IMG/VR virus record: IMGVR_UViG_2574180220_000001
Length of the DNA stretch: 15,630 bases
Origin: a virus
Taxonomy: Duplodnaviria; Heunggongvirae; Uroviricota; Caudoviricetes
Strand: one strand, 5' to 3'
Numbering within the stretch: the stretch's first letter is position 1; every line of letters begins with the position of its first letter. The notes beneath the pieces were generated by a model, which saw only the letters and a program-made list of their open reading frames with translations, was not told the DNA's origin and ran no database searches. Both the position numbers and the translations under genes were made by a program. Below are positions 2,981 through 15,630 of the stretch, piece by piece.

Positions 2981-3262
2981 TTAATCGTCAATGTATTTTG
3001 AGCATTGTGGGCAATCATCGATCCCACAATACGATTCATATGCATCCTTTATTGCGTCGCGGGCTTCAGTAAGAGTATTGAATAAGTTGCAGCTATTATC
3101 TTTTTGATATAGGTAAGTTCCTAATTTATAAGCAGAAGAAGCATCATTTCCGCTGTCTAAAATTACATCGTTATGGATTCTGCACCTTGCAAGAACTCCT
3201 GATCCCATAAGGGTCTGCATAGCCCATTGCTCTTGATCTTCACACAAATCATGAATGCTCAT
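2981..3262 (-). CDS. ea8.5: Ea8.5-like protein (93 aa, C-terminal Cys-rich motif)
   Basis: Track ORF 2981..3280 begins at a GTG; the ATG at 3262 (MSIHDLCEDQ...) has a GAGAGG Shine-Dalgarno and gives 93 aa, the size and position of lambda ea8.5. C-terminus CGIDDCPQC. Confidence 0.75.
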   Translation of the reverse strand: MSIHDLCEDQEQWAMQTLMGSGVLARCRIHNDVILDSGNDASSAYKLGTYLYQKDNSCNLFNTLTEARDAIKDAYESYCGIDDCPQCSKYIDD

Positions 3263-3376
3263 TTCAACACCTCTCTTCACGTTTCACACACGTTAAGATT
3301 AACAGTGTTTTTACATGCTTTGGGAGATTTATTTTATAAAAACTCTTTTAATACAAATAGATATAATAGTTCACTA

Positions 3377-4105
3377 TTATAGCTCCTTTAATCGAGGCGG
3401 TTCTGGTAGAGGCATCCAGTGGGTTACACCGCCAATTGGCTCATCGTCGTCGTACTCCAATGCGGCTATATAGAACCCGTCACGACGAGAATAAGAAATC
3501 CCGGACATTACAATGCCATCCGAAACAACAATAATGTCACCCGTTTCTTTCGGCATTCGCTCACTACAGCTTATCCAACCATCCGGAGTCACCGGAAGCG
3601 AGAACGGCAGCACATCTCTGTGAACAAGTTTTTGCTGTGACAGGTTATCCAGAACTTTCTGTACTGCTGCATCACCGAATACACCAAGCGCATCTGCCAT
3701 AACTCCTACAACCTGATAAGCCTCAGCGCATACCGTGGATAAACCATCCGGAATTACCGGAGAGTTACGGTCCTTGCGGTAAATCCGGCATGTACAGGAT
3801 TCATTGTCCTGCTCAAAGTCCATGCCATCAAACTGCTGGTTTTCATTGATGATGCGGGACCAGCCATCAACGCCCACCACCGGAACAATGCCGTTCTGCT
3901 TATCAGGGAAGGCGTAAATTTCTTTCGTCCACGGATTAAGGCCGTACTGGTTGGCGACGATCAGCAATGCGATGAACTGCGCATCGCTGGCATCACCTTT
4001 AAATGCCGTCTGGCGAAGAGTGGTGATCAGTTCCTGTGGGTCGACAGAATCCATGCCGACACGTTCAGCCAGCTTCCCAGCCAGCGTTGCGAGTGCTGTA
4101 CTCAT
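3377..4105 (-). CDS. Chimeric ORF: N-terminal ~115 aa of Bet (Red-beta annealing protein) fused in frame to a non-Bet C-terminus ending in a DUF551-like motif (VTHWMPLPEPP)
   Basis: Residues 1-115 (MSTALATLAGKLAERVGMDSVDPQELITTLRQ...NESCTCRIYRKDRN) match lambda Bet; the sequence then diverges completely (SPVIPDGLSTVCAEAY...GGVTHWMPLPEPPRLKEL). No exo gene lies downstream. Junction near plus coordinate 3760. Confidence 0.8.
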   Translation of the reverse strand: MSTALATLAGKLAERVGMDSVDPQELITTLRQTAFKGDASDAQFIALLIVANQYGLNPWTKEIYAFPDKQNGIVPVVGVDGWSRIINENQQFDGMDFEQDNESCTCRIYRKDRNSPVIPDGLSTVCAEAYQVVGVMADALGVFGDAAVQKVLDNLSQQKLVHRDVLPFSLPVTPDGWISCSERMPKETGDIIVVSDGIVMSGISYSRRDGFYIAALEYDDDEPIGGVTHWMPLPEPPRLKEL

Positions 4106-4110
4106 CCGTT

Positions 4111-4527
4111 TTATACCTCTGAATCAATATCAACCTGGTGGTGAGCAATGGTTTCAACCATGTACCGGATGTGTTCTGCCATGCGCTCCTGAAACTCAAC
4201 ATCGTCATCAAACGCACGGGTAATGGCTTTTTTGCTGGCCCCGTGGCGTTGCAAATGATCGATGCATAGCGATTCAAACAGGTGCTGGGGCAGGCCTTTT
4301 TCCATGTCGTCTGCCAGTTCTGCCTCTTTCTCTTCACGGGCGATCTGCTGGTAGTGACGCGCCCAGCTCTGAGCCTCAAGACGATCCTGAATGTAATAAG
4401 CGTTCATGGCTGAACTCCTGAAATAGCTGTGAAAATATCGTCCGCGAAATGCCGGGCTGATTAGGAAAACAGGGAAGGGGGGTAGTGAATGCTTTTGCTT
4501 GATCTCAGTTTCAGTATTAATATCCAT
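4111..4527 (-). CDS. gam: Gam (RecBCD inhibitor), 138 aa
   Basis: [15 protein letters not shown]...[10 protein letters not shown] matches lambda Gam; internal Met (MNAYYIQ) corresponds to the GamS start. Confidence 0.95.
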
Positions 4528-4625: not shown

Positions 4626-4758
4626 TTTTTGGGACTCCTGGCTGATTAAGTATGTCGATAAGGCGTTTCCATCCGTCACGTAATTTACGGGTGATTCGTT
4701 CAAGTAAAGATTCGGAAGGGCAGCCAGCAACAGGCCACCCTGCAATGGCATATTGCAT
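4594..4758 (-). CDS. cIII: CIII (FtsH/HflB inhibitor), 54 aa
   Basis: Hand-translated [54 protein letters not shown] with AAGGAG Shine-Dalgarno; below the ORF-track size cutoff. Confidence 0.9.
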   Translation of the reverse strand: MQYAIAGWPVAGCPSESLLERITRKLRDGWKRLIDILNQPGVPKNGSNTYGYPD

Positions 4759-4785
4759 GGTGTGCTCCTTATTTATACATAACGA

Positions 4786-5381: not shown

Positions 5382-5582
5382 TCAGGCAGCTTTGTTGTTC
5401 TGTTTACCAAGTTCTCTGGCAATCATTGCCGTCGTTCGTATTGCCCATTTATCGACATATTTCCCATCATCCATTACAGGAAACATTTCTTCAGGCTTAA
5501 CCATGCATTCCGATTGCAGCTTGCATCCATTGCATCGCTTGAATTGTCCACACCATTGATTTTTATCAATAGTCGTAGTCAT
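5382..5582 (-). CDS. ral: Ral (restriction alleviation protein), 66 aa
   Basis: MTTTIDKNQWCGQFKRCNGCKLQSECMVKPEEMFPVMDDGKYVDKWAIRTTAMIARELGKQNNKAA matches lambda Ral; 183-bp spacing to ea10 as in lambda. Confidence 0.92.
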   Translation of the reverse strand: MTTTIDKNQWCGQFKRCNGCKLQSECMVKPEEMFPVMDDGKYVDKWAIRTTAMIARELGKQNNKAA

Positions 5583-5687: not shown

Positions 5688-5909
5688 TTGTGCATGGCCC
5701 GTCTGAAAAAGAACAACAGCGATTTGCACGATTTATTAGTAGATTATTATATAGTCGGTATGACATTCATGTCACTGGCAGGTAAGCATTGCTGCTCTGA
5801 TGGTTATATCGGGAAAAGGTTACAAAAGGCTGAGGGCATAATTGAAGGGATGTTAATGGCATTAGATATCCGGTTAGAGATGGATATCGTTGTTAATAAC
5901 TCTAATTAA
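5688..5909 (+). pseudogene. 5'-truncated remnant (C-terminal ~71 aa) of an antiterminator Q gene of the phage 82 / DLP12 QuuD type
   Basis: [71 protein letters not shown] resembles the C-terminus of Q82/QuuD as I recall it; frame is closed by a TAA just upstream; lies immediately upstream of the porin and lysis genes, where Q sits in DLP12/PA-2-type phages. Lambda-like sequence ends at about 5693. Confidence 0.55.
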
Positions 5910-6097: not shown

Positions 6098-7180
6098 TTA
6101 GAACTGGTAAACCATACCTACAGCAACGATATCATCGGTAGCAACGCCAGATGCTTTCGTGAAATCGCTCTTATCAATCAGGTTGATTTTGTAGTCAACA
6201 AAAGTGGACATATTTTTGTTGAAGTAATAGGTTGCACCTACATCAACATATTCAACCAGGTCCTGATCACCCCAAACACCCAAGTCTTTTCCTTTAGAAT
6301 GCAGGTAAGCAACGGATGGACGCAGGCCGAAGTCGAACTGATATTGTGCAACAGCTTCGAAGTTTTGTGCTTTGTTGGCAATATGGTTATTACCAAAAAC
6401 AGTCATGTTCTGGGTTTCAGAATAGGTGGTAGCCAGATAGATGTTGTTCGCATCATATTTCAGACCAGCTGCCCATACTTCAGCATTTTGACCAGAAGCA
6501 TTCAGACCGTTGTTACCGTAGATAACCTGATTATTAGTGCGATCAGATTTAGCATAGGTTGCACCCACGCCGAATCCTTCATACTCATAAGTAGTTGAGA
6601 AACCGAAACCATCGCCATTAGCTTCAGTTACTTCATTTCGGTCATTTTTGCCCTGATACTGAGCTGCAAAGTTCAGGCCATCAACCAGACCAAAGAAGTC
6701 GTTGTTACGATAAGTTGCAACACCTGTGGTGCGACCAGTCATGAATACATCTGTTTGGGTCCAGGTATCGCCACCGAATTCTGGCAGAACGTCGGTCCAT
6801 GCACCGATGTCGTATGCTACACCGTAGTTACGGCCGTAATCGATGGAGCCGTAGTCACCGAATTTCAGGCCAGCGAAGGCAAGACGGGTTTTATCTTTGG
6901 AGGAACCTTGAGATTCAGCGCGGTTGCCTTTGAATTCATATTCCCACTGACCGAAACCAGTCAGTTGATCGTTGATTTGGGTTTCACCTTTGAAGCCAAG
7001 ACGGGCATAAGTAGTATCACCATCATCTGCATCATTAGAGGAGAAGTAGTGCTTGGCATTAACTTTCCCGTACAGATCCAGCTTGTTACTGTCTTTATTA
7101 TAAATTTCAGCTGCCTGAGCAGACATCGCCATCAGTACTGATGCAGCTACAGCAGAAATTGCCACTGTTAATTTTTTCAT
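6098..7180 (-). CDS. nmpC: OmpC-family general porin, prophage-encoded NmpC/Lc-like, intact (360 aa)
   Basis: Signal peptide [23 protein letters not shown], porin motifs ([57 protein letters not shown]), C-terminal VYQF. Position between Q and the holin matches the lc/nmpC moron of PA-2/DLP12. Confidence 0.85.
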
Positions 7181-7608
7181 CGTGAGCCCTTTTTTTTGAA
7201 CTATTATTAAAAAATGATGTCACTGCGCGATAAATATTCATCTAATCAATGTGATTATTTCAAGATGTAAGTTTTAGTTTCTCGTTTGATTTGTGAAGTA
7301 GATCTCTATTTTTATCTGAACTTTTTTCTATCGAATCCTATTCATGGCTCTTGGCTGAATAAAAATAAATCTATTAGCCAATTTATATTAACGGCTGTTA
7401 TTTATAAGTGCTCTATAATTTGAAGGTTCAATTTAAACCGGCTAAAAATAACACTGGAAATTATTTATTGGTTATTTGTTGAGATTTTCTTATGTATTTG
7501 TAGTGGTGTTTTCAATACTCGGTAGCATTCTCGCAAATATCATTTAGTGGTTTACGTACGTAAAAAATTGGTTATGCTGTTAAGAGTGGTTACTTCGTCA
7601 CACAGCTT

Positions 7609-7641
7609 AAACCCGCCGTCGAGCGGGTTTTTCCATTTTTT
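7609..7641 (+). terminator. Intrinsic terminator upstream of the holin gene, tR'-like (AAACCCGC-CGTCGA-GCGGGTTT then TTCCATTTTTT)
   Basis: Seen in sequence: 8-bp stem and T-rich tract on the plus strand about 130 bp before the holin start. A possible late promoter (TTTACG ... TATGCT, about 7551-7578) precedes it, with low confidence. Confidence 0.5.
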
Positions 7642-7769
7642 GAGTCTCGATATTAGCTGATAACCCAATACCTGAGTTATTCACTGACTCCGAGTCTGTT
7701 ACGTTTCTGCTTTTTTGCGATACGTTGTATTCCCTCAATTTACACCCGCTTTGTCTGCGAGGTGGGGTT

Positions 7770-7985
7770 ATGAAATCCATGGATAAGTTAACAACGGGTG
7801 TCGCCTATGGCACCTCAGCAGGTAGTGCCGGTTACTGGTTTTTACAGCTGCTCGATAAAGTCACGCCCTCACAGTGGGCAGCAATAGGTGTGCTGGGTAG
7901 CCTGGTATTTGGCCTGCTGACGTACCTGACAAACCTTTATTTCAAGATTAAAGAAGATAAGCGCAAGGCTGCGAGAGGTGAATAA
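7770..7985 (+). CDS. S: Class II holin (pinholin), phage 21 S-type, 71 aa with dual-start motif MKSMDK
   Basis: [71 protein letters not shown] resembles S21 / EssD; GGTGGGG Shine-Dalgarno. The track ORF 7725..7985 begins at an upstream start. Confidence 0.85.
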
Positions 7986-8482
7986 TGCCTCCATCATTAC
8001 GAAAAGCCGTTGCTGCTGCTATTGGTGGCGGAGCAATTGCTATAGCATCAGTGTTAATTACTGGCCCAAGTGGTAACGATGGTCTGGAAGGTGTCAGCTA
8101 CGTACCATACAAAGATATCGTTGGCGTATGGACTGTATGTCACGGACACACCGGAAAAGACATCATGCTCGGTAAAACGTATACCAAAGCAGAATGCAAA
8201 GCACTCTTGAATAAAGACCTTGCCACTGTCGCCAGACAAATTAACCCGTACATCAAAGTCGATATACCGGAAACAACGCGCGGCGCTCTTTACTCATTCG
8301 TTTACAACGTGGGTGCTGGCAATTTCAGAACATCGACGCTTCTTCGCAAAATAAACCAGGGCGATATCAAAGGCGCATGTGATCAGCTACGTCGCTGGAC
8401 ATATGCTGGCGGTAAGCAATGGAAAGGTCTCATGACTCGTCGTGAGATTGAGCGTGAAATCTGTTTGTGGGGTCAGCAATGA
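7985..8482 (+). CDS. R: SAR endolysin (T4-lysozyme-like, GH24), phage 21 R-type, 165 aa
   Basis: N-terminal Gly/Ala-rich signal-arrest-release segment ([20 protein letters not shown]), catalytic E-x8-D/C-x5-T region ([23 protein letters not shown]); start overlaps the holin stop. Confidence 0.9.
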
Positions 8483-8940
8483 ACAGAGTAACCGCGATTA
8501 TCTCCGCTCTGGTTATCTGCATCATCGTCTACCTGTCATGGGCTGTTAATCATTACCGTGATAACGCCATTACCTACAAAGCCCAGCGCGACAAAAATGC
8601 CAGAGAACTGAAGCTGGCGAACGCGGCAATTACTGACATGCAGATGCGTCAGCGTGATGTTGCTGCGCTCGATGCAAAATACACGAAGGAGTTAGCTGAT
8701 GCTAAAGCTGAAAATGATGCTCTGCGTGATGATGTTGCCGCTGGTCGTCGTCGGTTGCACATCAAAGCAGTCTGTCAGTCAGTGCGTGAAGCCACCACCG
8801 CCTCCGGCGTGGATAATGCAGCCTCCCCCCGACTGGCAGACACCGCTGAACGGGATTATTTCACCCTCAGAGAGAGGCTGATCACTATGCAAAAACAACT
8901 GGAAGGAACCCAGAAGTATATTAATGAGCAGTGCAGATAG
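8479..8940 (+). CDS. Rz: Rz inner-membrane spanin (i-spanin)
   Basis: [55 protein letters not shown]... matches lambda Rz; ATGA overlap with the R stop. Track lists 8467 as an alternative upstream start. Confidence 0.9.
8699..8881 (+). CDS. Rz1: Rz1 outer-membrane lipoprotein spanin (o-spanin), embedded in the +1 frame of Rz
   Basis: [60 protein letters not shown]; lipobox LVVVGC and proline-rich region; fully nested inside Rz as in lambda. Confidence 0.9.
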
Positions 8941-8971
8941 AGTTGCCCATATCGATGGGCAACTCATGCAA

Positions 8972-9265
8972 TTATTGTGAGCAATACACACGCGCTTCCA
9001 GCGGAGTATAAATGCCTAAAGTAATAAAACCGAGCAATCCATTTACGAATGTTTGCTGGGTTTCTGTTTTAACAACATTTTCTGCGCCGCCACAAATTTT
9101 GGCTGCATCGACAGTTTTCTTCTGCCCAATTCCAGAAACGAAGAAATGATGGGTGATGGTTTCCTTTGGTGCTACTGCTGCCGGTTTGTTTTGAACAGTA
9201 AACGTCTGTTGAGCACATCCTGTAATAAGCAGGGCCAGCGCAGTAGCGAGTAGCATTTTTTTCAT
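8972..9265 (-). CDS. bor: Bor lipoprotein (serum-resistance, Iss-like lysogenic conversion protein), 97 aa
   Basis: MKKMLLATALALLITGCAQQTFTVQNKPAAVAPKETITHHFFVSGIGQKKTVDAAKICGG... matches lambda Bor; lipobox LITGC. Confidence 0.9.
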   Translation of the reverse strand: MKKMLLATALALLITGCAQQTFTVQNKPAAVAPKETITHHFFVSGIGQKKTVDAAKICGGAENVVKTETQQTFVNGLLGFITLGIYTPLEARVYCSQ

Positions 9266-9555
9266 GGTGTTATTCCCGATGCTTTTTGAAGTTCGCAGAA
9301 TCGTATGTGTAGAAAATTAAACAAACCCTAAACAATGAGTTGAAATTTCATATTGTTAATATTTATTAATGTATGTCAGGTGCGATGAATCGTCATTGTA
9401 TTCCCGGATTAACTATGTCCACAGCCCTGACGGGGAACTTCTCTGCGGGAGTGTCCGGGAATAATTAAAAACGATGCACACAGGGTTTAGCGCGTACACG
9501 TATTGCATTATGCCAACGCCCCGGTGCTGACACGGAAGAAACCGGACGTTATGAT

Positions 9556-10089
9556 TTAGCGTGGAAAGATTTGTGTAGTGTTCTGAATGCTCTCAGTAAA
9601 TAGTAATGAATTATCAAAGGTATAGTAATATCTTTTATGTTCATGGATATTTGTAACCCATCGGAAAACTCCTGCTTTAGCAAGATTTTCCCTGTATTGC
9701 TGAAATGTGATTTCTCTTGATTTCAACCTATCATAGGACGTTTCTATAAGATGCGTGTTTCTTGAGAATTTAACATTTACAACCTTTTTAAGTCCTTTTA
9801 TTAACACGGTGTTATCGTTTTCTAACACGATGTGAATATTATCTGTGGCTAGATAGTAAATATAATGTGAGACGTTGTGACGTTTTAGTTCAGAATAAAA
9901 CAATTCACAGTTTAAATCTTTTCGCACTTGATCGAATATTTCTTTAAAAATGGCAACCTGAGCCATTGGTAAAACCTTCCATGTGATACGAGGGCGCGTA
10001 GTTTGCATTATCGTTTTTATCGTTTCAATCTGGTCTGACCTCTTTGTGTTTTGTTGATGATTTATGTCAAATATTAGGAATGTTTTCAC
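9556..10089 (-). CDS. Hypothetical protein at the position of lambda p78, possibly DUF1398 / YbcV-like; function unknown
   Basis: 177-aa ORF; size and spacing to bor and to the next ORF match the lambda right arm. An internal Met ([11 protein letters not shown]...) would give 136 aa, the size I recall for DLP12 YbcV. Family assignment is from memory only. Confidence 0.65.
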
Positions 10090-10251
10090 TTAATAGTATT
10101 GGTTGCGTAACAAAGTGCGGTCCTGCTGGCATTCTGGAGGGAAATACAACCGACAGATGTATGTAAGGCCAACGTGCTCAAATCTTCATACAGAAAGATT
10201 TGAAGTAATATTTTAACCGCTAGATGAAGAGCAAGCGCATGGAGCGACAAA

Positions 10252-10458
10252 ATGAATAAAGAACAATCTGCTGATGATCCCTCCGTGGATCTGATTCGTG
10301 TAAAAAATATGCTTAATAGCACCATTTCTATGAGTTACCCTGATGTTGTAATTGCATGTATAGAACATAAGGTGTCTCTGGAAGCATTCAGAGCAATTGA
10401 GGCAGCGTTGGTGAAGCACGATAATAATATGAAGGATTATTCCCTGGTGGTTGACTGA
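10252..10458 (+). CDS. Hypothetical 68-aa protein at the position of lambda p79 (YbcW-like)
   Basis: [71 protein letters not shown]; 163-bp spacing from the preceding ORF as in lambda. Confidence 0.6.
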
Positions 10459-10622
10459 TCACCATAACTGCTAATCATTCAAACTATTTAGCCTGTGACA
10501 GAGCCAACACGCAGTCTGTCACTGTCAGGAAAGTGGTAAAACTGCAACTCAATTACTGCAATGCCCTCGTAATTAAGTGAATTTACAATATCGTCCTGTT
10601 CGGAGGGAAGAACGCGGGATGT

Positions 10623-11205: not shown

Positions 11206-11775
11206 ATGGAAGTCAACAAAAAGCAGCTGGCTGACATTTTCGGTGCGAGTATCCGTACCATTCAGAACTGGCAGGAACAGGGAATGCCCGTTCTGCGAGG
11301 CGGTGGCAAGGGTAATGAGGTGCTTTATGACTCTGCCGCCGTCATAAAATGGTATGCCGAAAGGGATGCTGAAATTGAGAACGAAAAGCTGCGCCGGGAG
11401 GTTGAAGAACTGCGGCAGGCCAGCGAGGCAGATCTCCAGCCAGGGACTATTGAGTACGAACGCCATCGACTTACGCGTGCGCAGGCCGACGCACAGGAAC
11501 TGAAGAATGCCAGAGACTCCGCTGAAGTGGTGGAAACCGCATTCTGTACTTTCGTGTTGTCGCGGATCGCAGGTGAAATTGCCAGTATTCTCGACGGGAT
11601 CCCCCTGTCGGTGCAGCGGCGTTTTCCGGAACTGGAAAACCGACATGTTGATTTCCTGAAACGGGATATCATCAAAGCCATGAACAAAGCAGCCGCGCTG
11701 GATGAACTGATAACGGGGCTAAAGCGCAGGCGCTCACTATCAACAAGGATGAGGTTAACTCAACTGTTGATTTAA
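11206..11775 (+). CDS. nu1: Terminase small subunit Nu1 with its C-terminus replaced (first ~170 aa lambda-like, last ~19 aa unrelated)
   Basis: MEVNKKQLADIFGASIRTIQNWQEQGMPVLRGGGKGNEVLYDSAAVIKWY... matches lambda Nu1 up to ...KAMNKAAALDELI, then diverges (TGLKRRRSLSTRMRLTQLLI); no terminase large subunit gene follows. Confidence 0.85.
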   Translation: MEVNKKQLADIFGASIRTIQNWQEQGMPVLRGGGKGNEVLYDSAAVIKWYAERDAEIENEKLRREVEELRQASEADLQPGTIEYERHRLTRAQADAQELKNARDSAEVVETAFCTFVLSRIAGEIASILDGIPLSVQRRFPELENRHVDFLKRDIIKAMNKAAALDELITGLKRRRSLSTRMRLTQLLI

Positions 11776-12428
11776 CTCTTACAAAACAAACAGGGACTGG
11801 AAATCGTTTTGTTTTACAGAACTTAGGTAATACAGAACTATCATTTGCCGCAAAAGTATGGGGATCAAGTGATCGACAAAACGTTTTTGAGGTTGGAACG
11901 TCTGCTGCGTATCTGTTTTATGCGCAAAAAACGTCAGCAGGCCAGTTGTTTGATGTAAATGGCGCTATTAATTGCACAACGCTGAATCAGTCATCAGACC
12001 GCGACCTTAAAGACGATATTCTCGTTATCAGCGACGCGACGAAAGCAATCCGTAAAATGAACGGATACACCTACACGCTCAGGGAAAACGGGATGCCTTA
12101 TGCTGGCGTTATTGCACAGGAAGTAATGGAGGCGATACCAGAAGCTGTGGGATCGTTTACTCATTACGGTGAAGAGTTGCAGGGACCAACGGTTGACGGC
12201 AATGAATTACGTGAAGAAACACGTTATCTGAATGTTGACTACGCCGCCGTGACGGGGTTACTTGTTCAGGTCGCCCGTGAAACAGATGGTCGCGTTACCG
12301 CGCTGGAAGAGGAAAACATAACGCTACGTAAAAATCTGGCAACAGCAGGCACCCGGATCAGCACTCTGGAAAATCAGGTAAGCGAACTGGTTGCACTTGT
12401 CCGGCAGTTAACAGGAAGCGAACATTGA
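11706..12428 (+). pseudogene. C-terminal fragment of a tail fibre / tailspike gene carrying a peptidase S74-type intramolecular chaperone domain; no own start at the junction
   Basis: Frame is open from the nu1 junction; contains the autoproteolysis-type motif SSDRDLKDDI followed by NGYTYTLRENGMPYAGVIAQEVMEAIPEAV and a C-terminal coiled-coil-like segment. Track reports only the Met-initiated part, 11946..12428. Confidence 0.6.
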
Positions 12429-14104: not shown

Positions 14105-14857
14105 GTGGATGATATGGCAACTACATGTTCAGTTATATTGATTTTGGAGTCCTTTGATGTTTATTTCGGAAAAGAGAGTGTGTTTCTGGAGAGAGGTTCA
14201 TCTGTACTTGTCGACTCTAGCTCTAGAGATTTTTTCCTGACATATCCTGAAAGAGTGATAGTGGCGGATTTTGGCGCTGAGTTTATTAGTCGCTATTTGA
14301 AAGCTAATAACTTAAGGGATATTTCTGATTGTAGGGAATATCCATCTTATTTAAAAATAAACTTTGCTGACTTCAGTTTAATTAAAGGATTAATTAGTTG
14401 GGCTAATCACTGTGCTGAATACATAGAAATTTTTGATGAGTCTATTGCTTTTACATGTCTCTCTGCATTTTCTTCTGAAAAACAATTTGGAGTATTTCTG
14501 TTTGAATGTTTGAAAAGCACAGGGGCTAAAGTTAAAACGATTATTCATACGGATTTATCTGCACCATGGCGTCTTAAGGATATATCATCAAGATTATATC
14601 TCAGCGAAAGTTTACTAAAGAGGAAATTGAAAGAAGAGGGGGTATCATTCAGTAAGATCATACTTGATGAGAGGATGCAAATGGCTGAATATTTACTCAG
14701 CACTCGTTGTTATCCTATTAGTAAAGTAGCTAAGGTCTGTGGTTATGCCAGTGTTTCATACTTTACTTATGTATTTAGACGTTATTTTGGTGTTTCTCCA
14801 AGTCAATACTCTCAGAGCAGTTCAGAAAGTAAAATTCTTACTCACCAGGGAATCTGA
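14105..14857 (+). CDS. AraC/XylS-family transcriptional regulator (YdeO/AppY/GadX-like), 250 aa
   Basis: C-terminal double helix-turn-helix region (PWRLKDISSRLYLSESLLKRKLKEEGVSFSKIILDERMQMAEYLL...VAKVCGYASVSYFTYVFRRYFGVSPSQY) typical of AraC family; AT-rich codon usage consistent with horizontally acquired DNA. Confidence 0.85.
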   Translation: MDDMATTCSVILILESFDVYFGKESVFLERGSSVLVDSSSRDFFLTYPERVIVADFGAEFISRYLKANNLRDISDCREYPSYLKINFADFSLIKGLISWANHCAEYIEIFDESIAFTCLSAFSSEKQFGVFLFECLKSTGAKVKTIIHTDLSAPWRLKDISSRLYLSESLLKRKLKEEGVSFSKIILDERMQMAEYLLSTRCYPISKVAKVCGYASVSYFTYVFRRYFGVSPSQYSQSSSESKILTHQGI

Positions 14858-15351
14858 TCATTGTTCTTGCCCCCTTATTTCCAGACAGGGGGTGTATCTT
14901 AAGTTAACGTTACCCGCTGACGTCGATATTCTCGCGGAGAGCGATAACCCAACGCACTGTGCGGATGGTTTTCATTGTAATGTTCGATCGCCACTGCAAG
15001 ATTATGCAATGCCGTTCTTACATTCGGTTTCGGCATGAACGCGATGTAGTCTTCCTTCATCGTTTTCACGAACCTTTCTGCCATTCCATTACTCTGAGGA
15101 CTGCTGATTGCCGTTGTGCAGGGCTCCAGATTCAACTCTCTGGCGAACTGCCATGTTTCATGCGCTCTATACGCTGAACCGTTATCTGTCAGCCACTGGA
15201 TGGACTGTTCCGGTACTTTATCGCCAAAGCGTTTTTCTATCGCTCCTAACATGACATCCTGCACTGTCGCTTTATCGTAACCTCCCGTGCTTGCGGCCCA
15301 GTCTATGGCTTCACGATCGCAACAGTCCAGGGCGAACGTAACACGCAGTTT
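14858..15351 (-). mobile_element. Truncated IS2-like element (IS3 family): terminal inverted repeat plus the 3' half of orfB
   Basis: Terminal sequence TTGCCCCCTTATTTCCAGACA resembles the IS2 end; minus-strand ORF fragment [24 protein letters not shown]...[50 protein letters not shown]...[14 protein letters not shown] resembles the IS2 OrfB integrase core. The 5' part is cut off at about 15351. Confidence 0.7.
14899..15351 (-). pseudogene. IS3-family (IS2-like) transposase OrfB, C-terminal fragment
   Basis: DDE/rve integrase-core motifs ([25 protein letters not shown]); the frame is open upstream of the reported Met but lacks the N-terminal half. Confidence 0.7.
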
Positions 15352-15630
15352 TGAATCGCCACGGGTTTAACAGACACCTCAGAGTCATTTAAGATGGCTT
15401 AAAGAGAGGTGCCCATGAGCGGTAAGCGTTATCCCGAAGAGTTTAAAACTGAAGCAGTCAAACAGGTTGTTGATCGCGGTTATTCTGTTGCCAGCGTTGC
15501 AACACGTCTCGATATCACCACCCACAGCCTTTATGCCTGGATAAAGAAGTACGGTCCGGATTACTCCACTTTTTCATCAAGCCAATCCGCCCACCACTGC
15601 ATCATTTCTCTGCGCTTATCGAAATACTGA
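15352..15630 (+). mobile_element. Left end of a second IS3-family element (IR beginning TGAATCGCCACGGG) with orfA; continues beyond the window
   Basis: IR-like terminus starting with TGA about 63 bp upstream of an orfA-type ORF; inserted into the IS2-like orfB. Family assignment by general resemblance only. Confidence 0.6.
15415..15630 (+). CDS. IS3-family transposase OrfA (HTH protein), possibly truncated or frameshifted at its C-terminus
   Basis: MSGKRYPEEFKTEAVKQVVDRGYSVASVATRLDITTHSLYAWIKKYGPD... is a typical IS3-family OrfA N-terminus with a helix-turn-helix; ATG at 15415 preceded by AGAGAGG. The tail (YSTFSSSQSAHHCIISLRLSKY) lacks the usual leucine-zipper-like segment. Confidence 0.6.
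   Translation: MSGKRYPEEFKTEAVKQVVDRGYSVASVATRLDITTHSLYAWIKKYGPDYSTFSSSQSAHHCIISLRLSKY

Follow-up and report, generated by a model that had tools for sequence, protein, structure and literature searches.

The open reading frame that follows gam in this defective lambdoid prophage is an in-frame chimera, in which the first 114 codons of lambda bet run into the 3' part of a pyrophosphohydrolase/DUF551 gene across a deletion of about 3.66 kb. Our comparisons make it very likely that the chimera is a neutral scar of prophage decay, left by illegitimate recombination and in frame by chance.

The window (the whole stretch of DNA analysed here, 15.6 kb) corresponds to the left-hand part of a defective lambdoid prophage at the E. 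coli lambda attachment site, beside ybhC, and it is identical to contig JMGR01000018.1 (assembly GCA_000687085.1; 100% identity over the 14,105 bases compared). Read along the minus strand from high coordinates towards ybhC, its genes are ral, a DUF2528 gene in the ea10 position, cIII, kil, gam and then the chimeric ORF, beyond which lie an ea8.5 homologue, a 55-aa ORF (orf55), xis and int. Further right the window carries a quuD fragment, an ompC/nmpC-type porin, the essD-rrrD-rzpD lysis cassette, bor and ybcV-like genes, followed by a Nu1-type small terminase, a tail-fibre remnant, an AraC-family regulator and IS3 debris. A tRNA scan of the window found none, and the sole match in an Rfam scan was the lambda cIII thermoregulator, which was already known. 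The element bears two other scars. At the first, ral abuts the quuD fragment, and the genes N, cI, cro, O and P are absent from both the ORF list and the gene table of an identical locus (L004). This older deletion took out N, pL and the immunity, replication and nin genes, and so deprived the chimera of its native promoter and antiterminator. The second scar joins Nu1 to the tail-fibre remnant and represents a loss of 5.3 kb that GPEC1054 still carries. The coordinates of all features are collected in Table 1.

Table 1. Features of the window that bear on the chimeric ORF, in order of position.
Feature	Position	Strand	Basis and remarks
ybhC	1-1284	minus	chromosomal neighbour of the prophage at att-lambda
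Chimeric ORF	3377-4105	minus	ORF list; 242 aa, stop codon within coordinates; architecture Bet(1-114)::linker+DUF551
3' part of DUF551 gene	3377-3766	minus	parent residues 106-234, linker module + DUF551; tblastn 100% (window 3766-3380)
DUF551 domain (PF04448)	3395-3580	minus	Pfam; chimera residues 176-237
Hairpin TCCGG-TAATT-CCGGA	3747-3761	minus	terminator-like/inverted-repeat scan; 4 nt 3' of the breakpoint on the gene strand
bet-derived part	3764-4105	minus	codons 1-114; tblastn 100% to Bet 1-114 (window 4105-3764)
Deletion junction	3765-3766	minus	2-bp microhomology AA; three-way base alignment; BLAST breakpoints against L003 and L013
gam	4111-4527	minus	ORF list; Pfam Gam on identical locus L004
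Terminator-like hairpins	5960-5943, 5247-5226, 4807-4788	minus	separate the ORF from any start upstream
ral/'quuD scar	5690-5696		overlap of ~7 bp, GTGCATG; BLAST end points against L013 and L017; relatives' annotation; L004 gene table
Promoter-like match GTGACA-18-TATAAT	5775-5746	minus	11/12; upstream of ral; only such match on the strand
Nu1/tail-fibre scar	11707-11718		microhomology ~CGGGG; BLAST end points

The initial annotation, made from the sequence alone, had proposed an in-frame joining of the Bet N-terminus to a DUF551 tail, and the profile and alignment searches bear this out, with Pfam matches to both RecT and DUF551 and tblastn identity of 100% for each half. Pfam RecT (PF03837) matches residues 24-99 (E 1.2e-16; 61.4 bits against a cut-off of 24; profile positions 5-82 of 198), and NCBIfam TIGR01913 matches with 105.8 bits (cut-off 76.95) over profile positions 3-116 of 188, where intact Bet covers 3-188. 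The PDB chain 7UJL_A, which is lambda Bet 1-177, equals the chimera up to residue 114 and diverges from 115, with no canonical Bet C-terminus beyond. The Bet segment, first put at 115 residues, is indeed N-terminal Bet but is 114 residues long, and Asn114 is encoded by both parents. Its start signals are the original ones, as had been claimed: the ORF begins with ATG behind the bet ribosome-binding site (GAGG...ATG), the gam gene directly upstream is intact, and the end of gam together with that site keeps the native lambda arrangement.

The remainder of the product derives from a gene that encodes, in its 234-aa version, PF04447 at residues 11-106 and DUF551 at 168-229, and that bears the RefSeq name "dATP/dGTP pyrophosphohydrolase domain-containing protein". 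Chimera residues 114-242 (the C-terminal 129) are 100% identical to parent residues 106-234, and the DNA of this part is 100% identical to that of many E. coli prophages. A DUF551 domain had been expected within residues 116-242, and Pfam finds it there as a full-length match (PF04448; E 7.9e-14; 52.7 bits against a cut-off of 22; profile positions 1-67 of 68). The breakpoint at parent residue 106 cuts the PF04447 enzyme domain away exactly and keeps the linker module and DUF551; PF04447 has no match in the chimera, which begins at that residue. The absence of exo, also part of the first description, holds as well, with no tblastn match to exo, to Bet 115-261 or to the pyrophosphohydrolase domain anywhere in the window, and with no exonuclease family in the gene table of L004. 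Two observations on the halves pull in different directions. Each half matches its separate parent at 99-100% identity, which counts for a scar, and the break falls exactly at the end of PF04447, a natural module boundary, which is tidy for a random event and counts against one.

A three-way base alignment resolves the junction. The bet parent aligns with the window down to 3765 (...GGACCGTAA/TCATCCG..., the slash marking the switch), and the DUF551-gene parent aligns from 3766 onward (...CCCGGCAA/CTCTCCGGTAATT...). The two bases AA (3766-3765) are the only ones common to both parents at the switch. In both genes they occupy positions 1 and 2 of an Asn codon, so the frames coincide and the reading frame is kept. 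No extended homology is present at the junction, the flanks being unrelated apart from a patchy AAnnnTCCG. The initial annotation had placed the crossover at a TCCG near 3760. That tetranucleotide (3759-3762) does occur in both parents, but the CTC that separates it from the AA derives from the DUF551 parent, so the switch must lie upstream of it. The hairpin just beyond the breakpoint (Table 1) could, speculatively, have aided the deletion.

A reconstructed 4.4-kb sequence of the ancestral bet-to-DUF551 interval served as query against 5,426 complete E. coli genomes. In 110 of them one locus accounts for at least 80% of the query, and in the best three the query is present in one piece at 99.7% identity. 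In one of the three, QDFD216, the prophage at this ybhC/att-lambda site is far more complete, with repressor, O, P, nin region and a full quuD, and with the order gam-bet-exo-DUF1317-DUF1382-hypothetical-TraR-ea22-like-hypothetical-(pseudogene remnant)-PPase/DUF551-ea8.5-orf55-xis-int. There, bet and the DUF551 gene lie on one contiguous stretch, with seven further genes or pseudogenes besides exo between them. As QDFD216 retains the undeleted arrangement at the same site, the window bears a deletion of about 3.66 kb. Relative to QDFD216 it lacks 3,657 bp (12342-15998 of that locus, L013), comprising bet codons 115-261, exo, DUF1317, DUF1382, a hypothetical gene, the TraR-like gene, the ea22-like gene, another hypothetical gene, the short pseudogene remnant and the pyrophosphohydrolase domain. 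The suggestion that this is a scar joining bet to a gene in the ea22 position thus stands as to the scar, given QDFD216, the 2-bp AA and the absent genes, but not as to the partner, which is not ea22 itself: it lies two genes downstream of the ea22-like gene and directly upstream of ea8.5.

A direct ancestor, with the same backbone and an intact gam-bet-exo, was found neither by a composite query nor by a metagenome scan. The composite query returned Ec40743 and PM22, of which Ec40743 was inspected; this element is a different one, located elsewhere and carrying a full Q gene and an IS insertion, and was rejected as the ancestor. The metagenome scan, for the exact ral/quuD scar, returned one 2.2-kb contig, which has the deletion of the APEC O78 type described below.

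Repeated lambdoid modules make prophage regions easy to misassemble. A junction of this kind could be an assembly or sequencing artefact on a chimeric contig, and one metagenome scaffold that carries it (L010) also has a divergent block elsewhere in the element. This reading is effectively refuted. The same junction is present on about 24-30 draft and metagenome contigs from independent NCBI, ENA and Logan assemblies, some of them 150-360 kb long with the same chromosomal flanks, and the neighbouring genes are the same on all. The exact protein is public (EHH6949717.1 and others; UniParc UPI00044842E2), and its cluster at 90% identity has one member. In the eight carrier loci that we fetched the ORF shows no differences, and the 7-14 kb compared outside it show 0-7, with the single exception of L010, whose differences all fall at window 6431-10516, nearly all in the lysis/ybcV block. 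The carriers are one recent, near-clonal lineage, and as such they give no power to test selective constraint on the ORF. The two halves are joined in no phage record and in none of the 5,426 complete E. coli genomes, a test that sought a place covering at least 80% of the chimera DNA in any frame and that fusions to diverged DUF551 alleles (the P0003 type, below) could escape. Junctions between bet and the DUF551 gene are rare and sporadic.

The ral/'quuD scar is common to the window and two sister lineages, and each of these has a different deletion in the Red region. APEC O78/ACN002/GPEC1054 have lost the interval from about nt 53 of gam to about bet codon 197, at a TT microhomology, and retain everything from exo through the full DUF551 gene, with the whole ea region. 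The L014 lineage has the same prophage backbone as the window and another bet-to-DUF551-gene deletion, which joins Bet 1-168 to "NLSQQ..." at a TA microhomology and yields a protein of 257 aa (P0002). L014 also bears a Nu1::J scar, and relatives have gam/bet and RecT/ren scars. The three deletions overlap and none can be derived from another, so there must have been an ancestor with an intact Red region that was hit independently. Microhomologies of 2-7 bp (AA, TA, TTAA, TT, GTGCATG and ~CGGGG) are found at every scar examined, and a short microhomology at each junction is the signature of illegitimate recombination. The window is thus a clean, base-resolved case of the stepwise erosion of a grounded lambdoid prophage, and the sister lineages of this one backbone show three independent microhomology-mediated deletions in the Red region.

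The events we propose would begin with the integration of a lambdoid prophage at att-lambda beside ybhC. The ral/quuD deletion would first have removed the N-pL-immunity-replication-nin block and fixed the prophage in the chromosome. In a single E. coli lineage, the AA in bet codon 114 may later have recombined with the AA in codon 106 of the pyrophosphohydrolase/DUF551 gene in an illegitimate, microhomology-mediated event of RecA-independent type, with removal of about 3.66 kb. The frames would have matched by luck (a one in three chance), and the ORF runs to the native stop of the DUF551 gene. Deletion scars of this sort are familiar from cryptic prophages, the truncated exoD and renD of DLP12 in K-12 being an example. 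The concept of grounded prophages has been reviewed (PMC6379469). In grounded and cryptic lambdoid prophages, the loss of regulatory and replication genes locks the prophage in place and later deletions leave truncated or fused ORFs. Nothing essential differs here; the scar in the window happens to be in frame and is therefore annotated as a normal gene.

It is possible, if unlikely, that the deletion was itself selected, as an adaptive loss of Red or of a gene in the exo-xis region, with the fused ORF as a by-product. Once repressor and pL control had gone, residual expression of bet and exo or of the ea genes would have been costly and cells that deleted them favoured. Such a history would account for the finding that all three lineages with the ral/quuD backbone independently lost part of bet while the searches turned up no backbone copy that retains an intact bet, and the operon could be driven from the promoter-like site upstream of ral. 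Yet gam and kil, the most toxic genes of lambda's operon, are intact in two of the three lineages, and the APEC O78-type deletion spares exo and the whole ea region. Deletions have also occurred elsewhere in these elements (Nu1/tail fibre in the window, Nu1::J in L014), as if they were simply frequent here, and three events are too few for statistics.

Beyond the window we looked for other proteins that combine RecT-N with DUF551 in a collection of 5.8 billion clusters. Three proteins with both domains were among the 120 best-scoring matches listed: the chimera, P0002 and P0003. The last (287 aa) joins Bet 1-197 to "KEPGNYPVTPDGW..." at a TTAA microhomology, with another DUF551 allele, in a different and fuller prophage beside torS. 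P0002 and P0003 resemble the chimera in having an in-frame Bet N-terminus and DUF551 tail produced by a bet-to-DUF551 deletion at a 2-4 bp microhomology, and differ from it in their breakpoints. Each fusion forms a singleton cluster with a breakpoint of its own, on 4 to about 30 contigs, and with a Bet segment of its own length (114, 168 and 197 residues). They are independent events, not relatives by descent. No conserved RecT-N + DUF551 family, with diverged sequences in several lineages or taxa, was present among the matches listed. The initial annotation had also allowed for a naturally occurring chimera of unknown function. The ORF does exist in nature, which is trivial, but a conserved family of this architecture does not appear, and the database search for full-length proteins of the same architecture gave rare clonal fusions with different breakpoints among the matches listed. 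Every carrier sampled keeps the ORF and its ribosome-binding site intact, and there are three in-frame fusions; both facts could hint at selection. As to the fusions, a protein search detects only those that are in frame, so their number is uninformative on this point.

What the chimera lacks can be read from the cryo-EM structure of Red-beta177. The smallest unit able to bind and anneal ssDNA comprises Bet residues 1-177, with a beta-beta-beta-alpha motif (beta3-5 and alpha5) as core; the finger loop (126-142) forms the DNA groove's roof, R128, W143 and K154 hold the template strand, and the C-terminal domain (178-261) binds lambda Exo (PMC9512822). Only 114 of the 177 residues of the annealing domain are present in the chimera, without the finger loop, R128, W143, K154, the 3-10 helix, alpha5 and the 178-261 domain. 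Since needed annealing elements lie beyond residue 114 and exo is gone, Red recombination has probably been lost from the element, in agreement with the first description, and the structure paper and the gene content together predict a loss of annealase activity. With its beta-beta-beta-alpha core cut and alpha5 gone, Bet 1-114 is unlikely to fold like Bet. The chimera is almost certainly non-functional. A structure prediction of it, from an alignment of 43 sequences, had a mean pLDDT of 39 and a pTM of 0.27, values too low for any reading of the fold; the homologues listed resembled one another too closely for a deeper alignment.

The chimera is also probably little transcribed, since both pL and N have been deleted and the ORF is preceded by terminator-like sites. 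Some transcription from the strong promoter-like match upstream of ral is possible; the region of this match has fewer promoter-like matches than shuffled sequence. Read-through from the porin gene was considered and is unlikely, as a strong terminator-like hairpin (GGGGCG...CGCCCC, with a T-run; 5960-5943) follows the porin.

A very different view would make the chimera a functional new protein. The portable DUF551 module would have acquired another N-terminal domain, as in mosaics of the Eaa/Ea22 type, and the product might act, for instance, as a poison subunit or decoy against the Red-beta of superinfecting lambdoid phages. DUF551 is an uncharacterised domain that is portable behind many different N-terminal domains (PMC10834534). 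In P0004, P0018 and P0096 one and the same C-terminal module follows unrelated N-termini, and the window breaks exactly at their switch. The intact ORF and ribosome-binding site and the three independent in-frame Bet::DUF551 fusions would fit as well. We nevertheless hold this view to be very improbable. The fusions are singleton clusters with neither a conserved family nor a common architecture, their Bet lengths differ, and none of the 5,426 complete genomes carries the chimera; the break at residue 114 cuts the Bet core, the native promoter is missing, and PADLOC defence models gave no match for the chimera or its parent.

The natural DUF551 mosaics (Ea22 variant V2 of Stx phages, P0004, YfdS of prophage CPS-53) are like the chimera in having a portable C-terminal module that switches at 'NSPV(I/T)PDG'. 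Unlike it, they are widespread and intact in functional phage genomes (P0096 occurs on 91 contigs), whereas the chimera occurs in a single near-clonal lineage and has a mere domain fragment at its N-terminus. Set beside lambda Bet/Red-beta (PF03837, TIGR01913, 7UJL), the chimera is identical at residues 1-114 and has the same start, ribosome-binding site and place after gam, but it lacks 115-261, with the Exo/SSB-binding C-terminal domain, and has no exo partner. Set beside 'Eaa'-type proteins that combine PF04447 (formerly DUF550, MazZ-like) with DUF551 (WP_229015942.1 / WP_371829341.1), it is 100% identical over its C-terminal 129 residues, and the stop codon and the downstream ea8.5, orf55, xis and int are the same in the window; the difference is that PF04447 is gone and a Bet fragment stands in its place.

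Some breakpoints coincide. The 'NSPV(I/T)PDG' motif is the module switch in natural mosaics of both Ea22-like::DUF551 (P0004, P0096) and PPase::DUF551 (P0018) type; the chimera breaks at this switch, at the end of PF04447, and P0003 breaks 15 nt away. The GTTAAC at bet codon 197/198 is the breakpoint of two independent deletions, those of P0003 and of the APEC O78 type. By rough counting, such coincidences among four events are marginally unlikely, with a chance of between a few per cent and about 20%. It is tempting to speculate that there are preferred breakpoints ('KEPGN/SPVIPDG', with CCGG-rich hairpin DNA, and the bet codon 197/198 GTTAAC) and that the chimera has been retained because it blocks Red-beta filaments or recombinase-sensing of incoming phages, as a form of superinfection exclusion. 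If true, preferred module-boundary breakpoints or a dominant-negative Bet fragment would bear on the origin of the mosaic exo-xis genes and on prophage-encoded exclusion. We give this combination very little credence; the chimera is an ordinary product of prophage decay, and no evidence here demands preferred breakpoints or a dominant-negative fragment.

The chimera also illustrates a hazard of annotation. Its NCBI name, "phage recombination protein Bet", follows from the partial TIGR01913 match, which exceeds the curated cut-off, so that half a gene with an unrelated tail is listed as Bet in public databases. Counts of Red-proficient prophages or of recombineering-capable strains that rely on this name would wrongly include it.

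The point at which the chimera (ORF 3377-4105) passes from Bet into the linker and DUF551 tail coincides exactly with the motif 'NSPV(I/T)PDG', the point at which N-terminal modules are exchanged in natural mosaics of the Eaa/Ea22 type (P0004, Ea22-like::DUF551; P0018, pyrophosphohydrolase::DUF551; and P0096). The linker and DUF551 tail behind this motif is the same in the chimera and in these three mosaics. Within bet itself, codon 197/198 has been hit by two independent deletions, one of the APEC O78 type, which joins gam to bet, and one in P0003, a longer Bet::DUF551 fusion, which joins bet to the DUF551 gene. Their break points lie about 2 nt apart (L003 7630-7720; L017 10550-10680) at a site that reads ...CCGGTTAA before the break and CG... 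after it, with the palindrome GTTAAC within. These paired breaks may reflect coincidence or a local hot spot.

The Bet::DUF551 fusion is also an annotation pitfall. The chimera is deposited at NCBI (EHH6949717.1 and others) as 'phage recombination protein Bet', a name also borne by P0003 and by a further fusion, P0002. Its match to the NCBIfam Bet model TIGR01913 is partial, covering profile positions 3-116 of 188, and the name is assigned because the score of 105.8 bits still exceeds the equivalog cut-off of 76.95 bits.

Coordinates of features within and around the fusion in the window
Feature	Position	Strand	Description
ea8.5 homologue (PF20735)	2981-3280	-	99-aa ORF, intact
TCCGG-TAATT-CCGGA hairpin	3747-3761	-	starts 4 nt after chimera breakpoint
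lambda cIII thermoregulator RNA element (RF01804)	4713-4771	-	Rfam, 88.5 bits, full length
ral / quuD deletion scar	5690-5696		between ral (5382-5582) and quuD fragment (5688-5909); overlap of about 7 bp, GTGCATG
OmpC/NmpC-type porin	6098-7180		360 aa, full-length ORF
essD-rrrD-rzpD/Rz1 lysis genes	7725-8940		full-length ORFs
bor serum-resistance lipoprotein	8972-9265		full-length ORF
Nu1 / tail-fibre scar	11707-11718		second scar; ORFs 11206-11775 and 11946-12428; imperfect CGGGG microhomology
AraC-family regulator gene	14105-14857		250-aa ORF; WP_000246057.1 is the annotation in relatives
IS3-family transposase fragments	14899-15630		after AraC-family regulator gene

Two further deletions have shaped the element. 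The region upstream of ral is joined to the 3' part of quuD, with the loss of N, pL, immunity, replication and nin genes; this scar is common to the window and to the sister APEC O78/ACN002/GPEC1054 and L014 lineages, and is therefore older than the bet deletions. In the late region, the second deletion has brought a gene for a Nu1-type small terminase up against the 3' end of one for a tail fibre (Peptidase_S74). The 5.3 kb missing there is retained in GPEC1054, where it comprises a terminase large fragment, a J fragment, lom and the tail fibre, while in L014 this region instead holds a 454-aa ORF that fuses Nu1 to J in frame.

The lambda cIII thermoregulator, an already-known element at the start of cIII, is intact despite the loss of its promoter. 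The ea8.5 homologue is whole in the window, whereas in ACN002, APEC O78 and several relatives it is interrupted by IS2 (L001 5505-6938), a further lineage-specific lesion of this prophage backbone. The full-length porin, lysis and bor genes in an otherwise eroded prophage are consistent with retention of host-useful 'moron' genes. The AraC-family gene and IS3-family fragments at the window's right end, which in relatives lie directly ahead of ybhB, look like cargo or debris on the attR side of the element.

An identical chimera is carried by an ENA metagenome scaffold (L010) that differs from the window at 96 positions, none of them left of 6431 and all but one within the lysis/bor/ybcV block (equivalent to window 7832-10516). 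This clustering suggests that the block underwent gene conversion with a paralogous prophage resembling DLP12, or else that the metagenome scaffold was assembled as a chimera.
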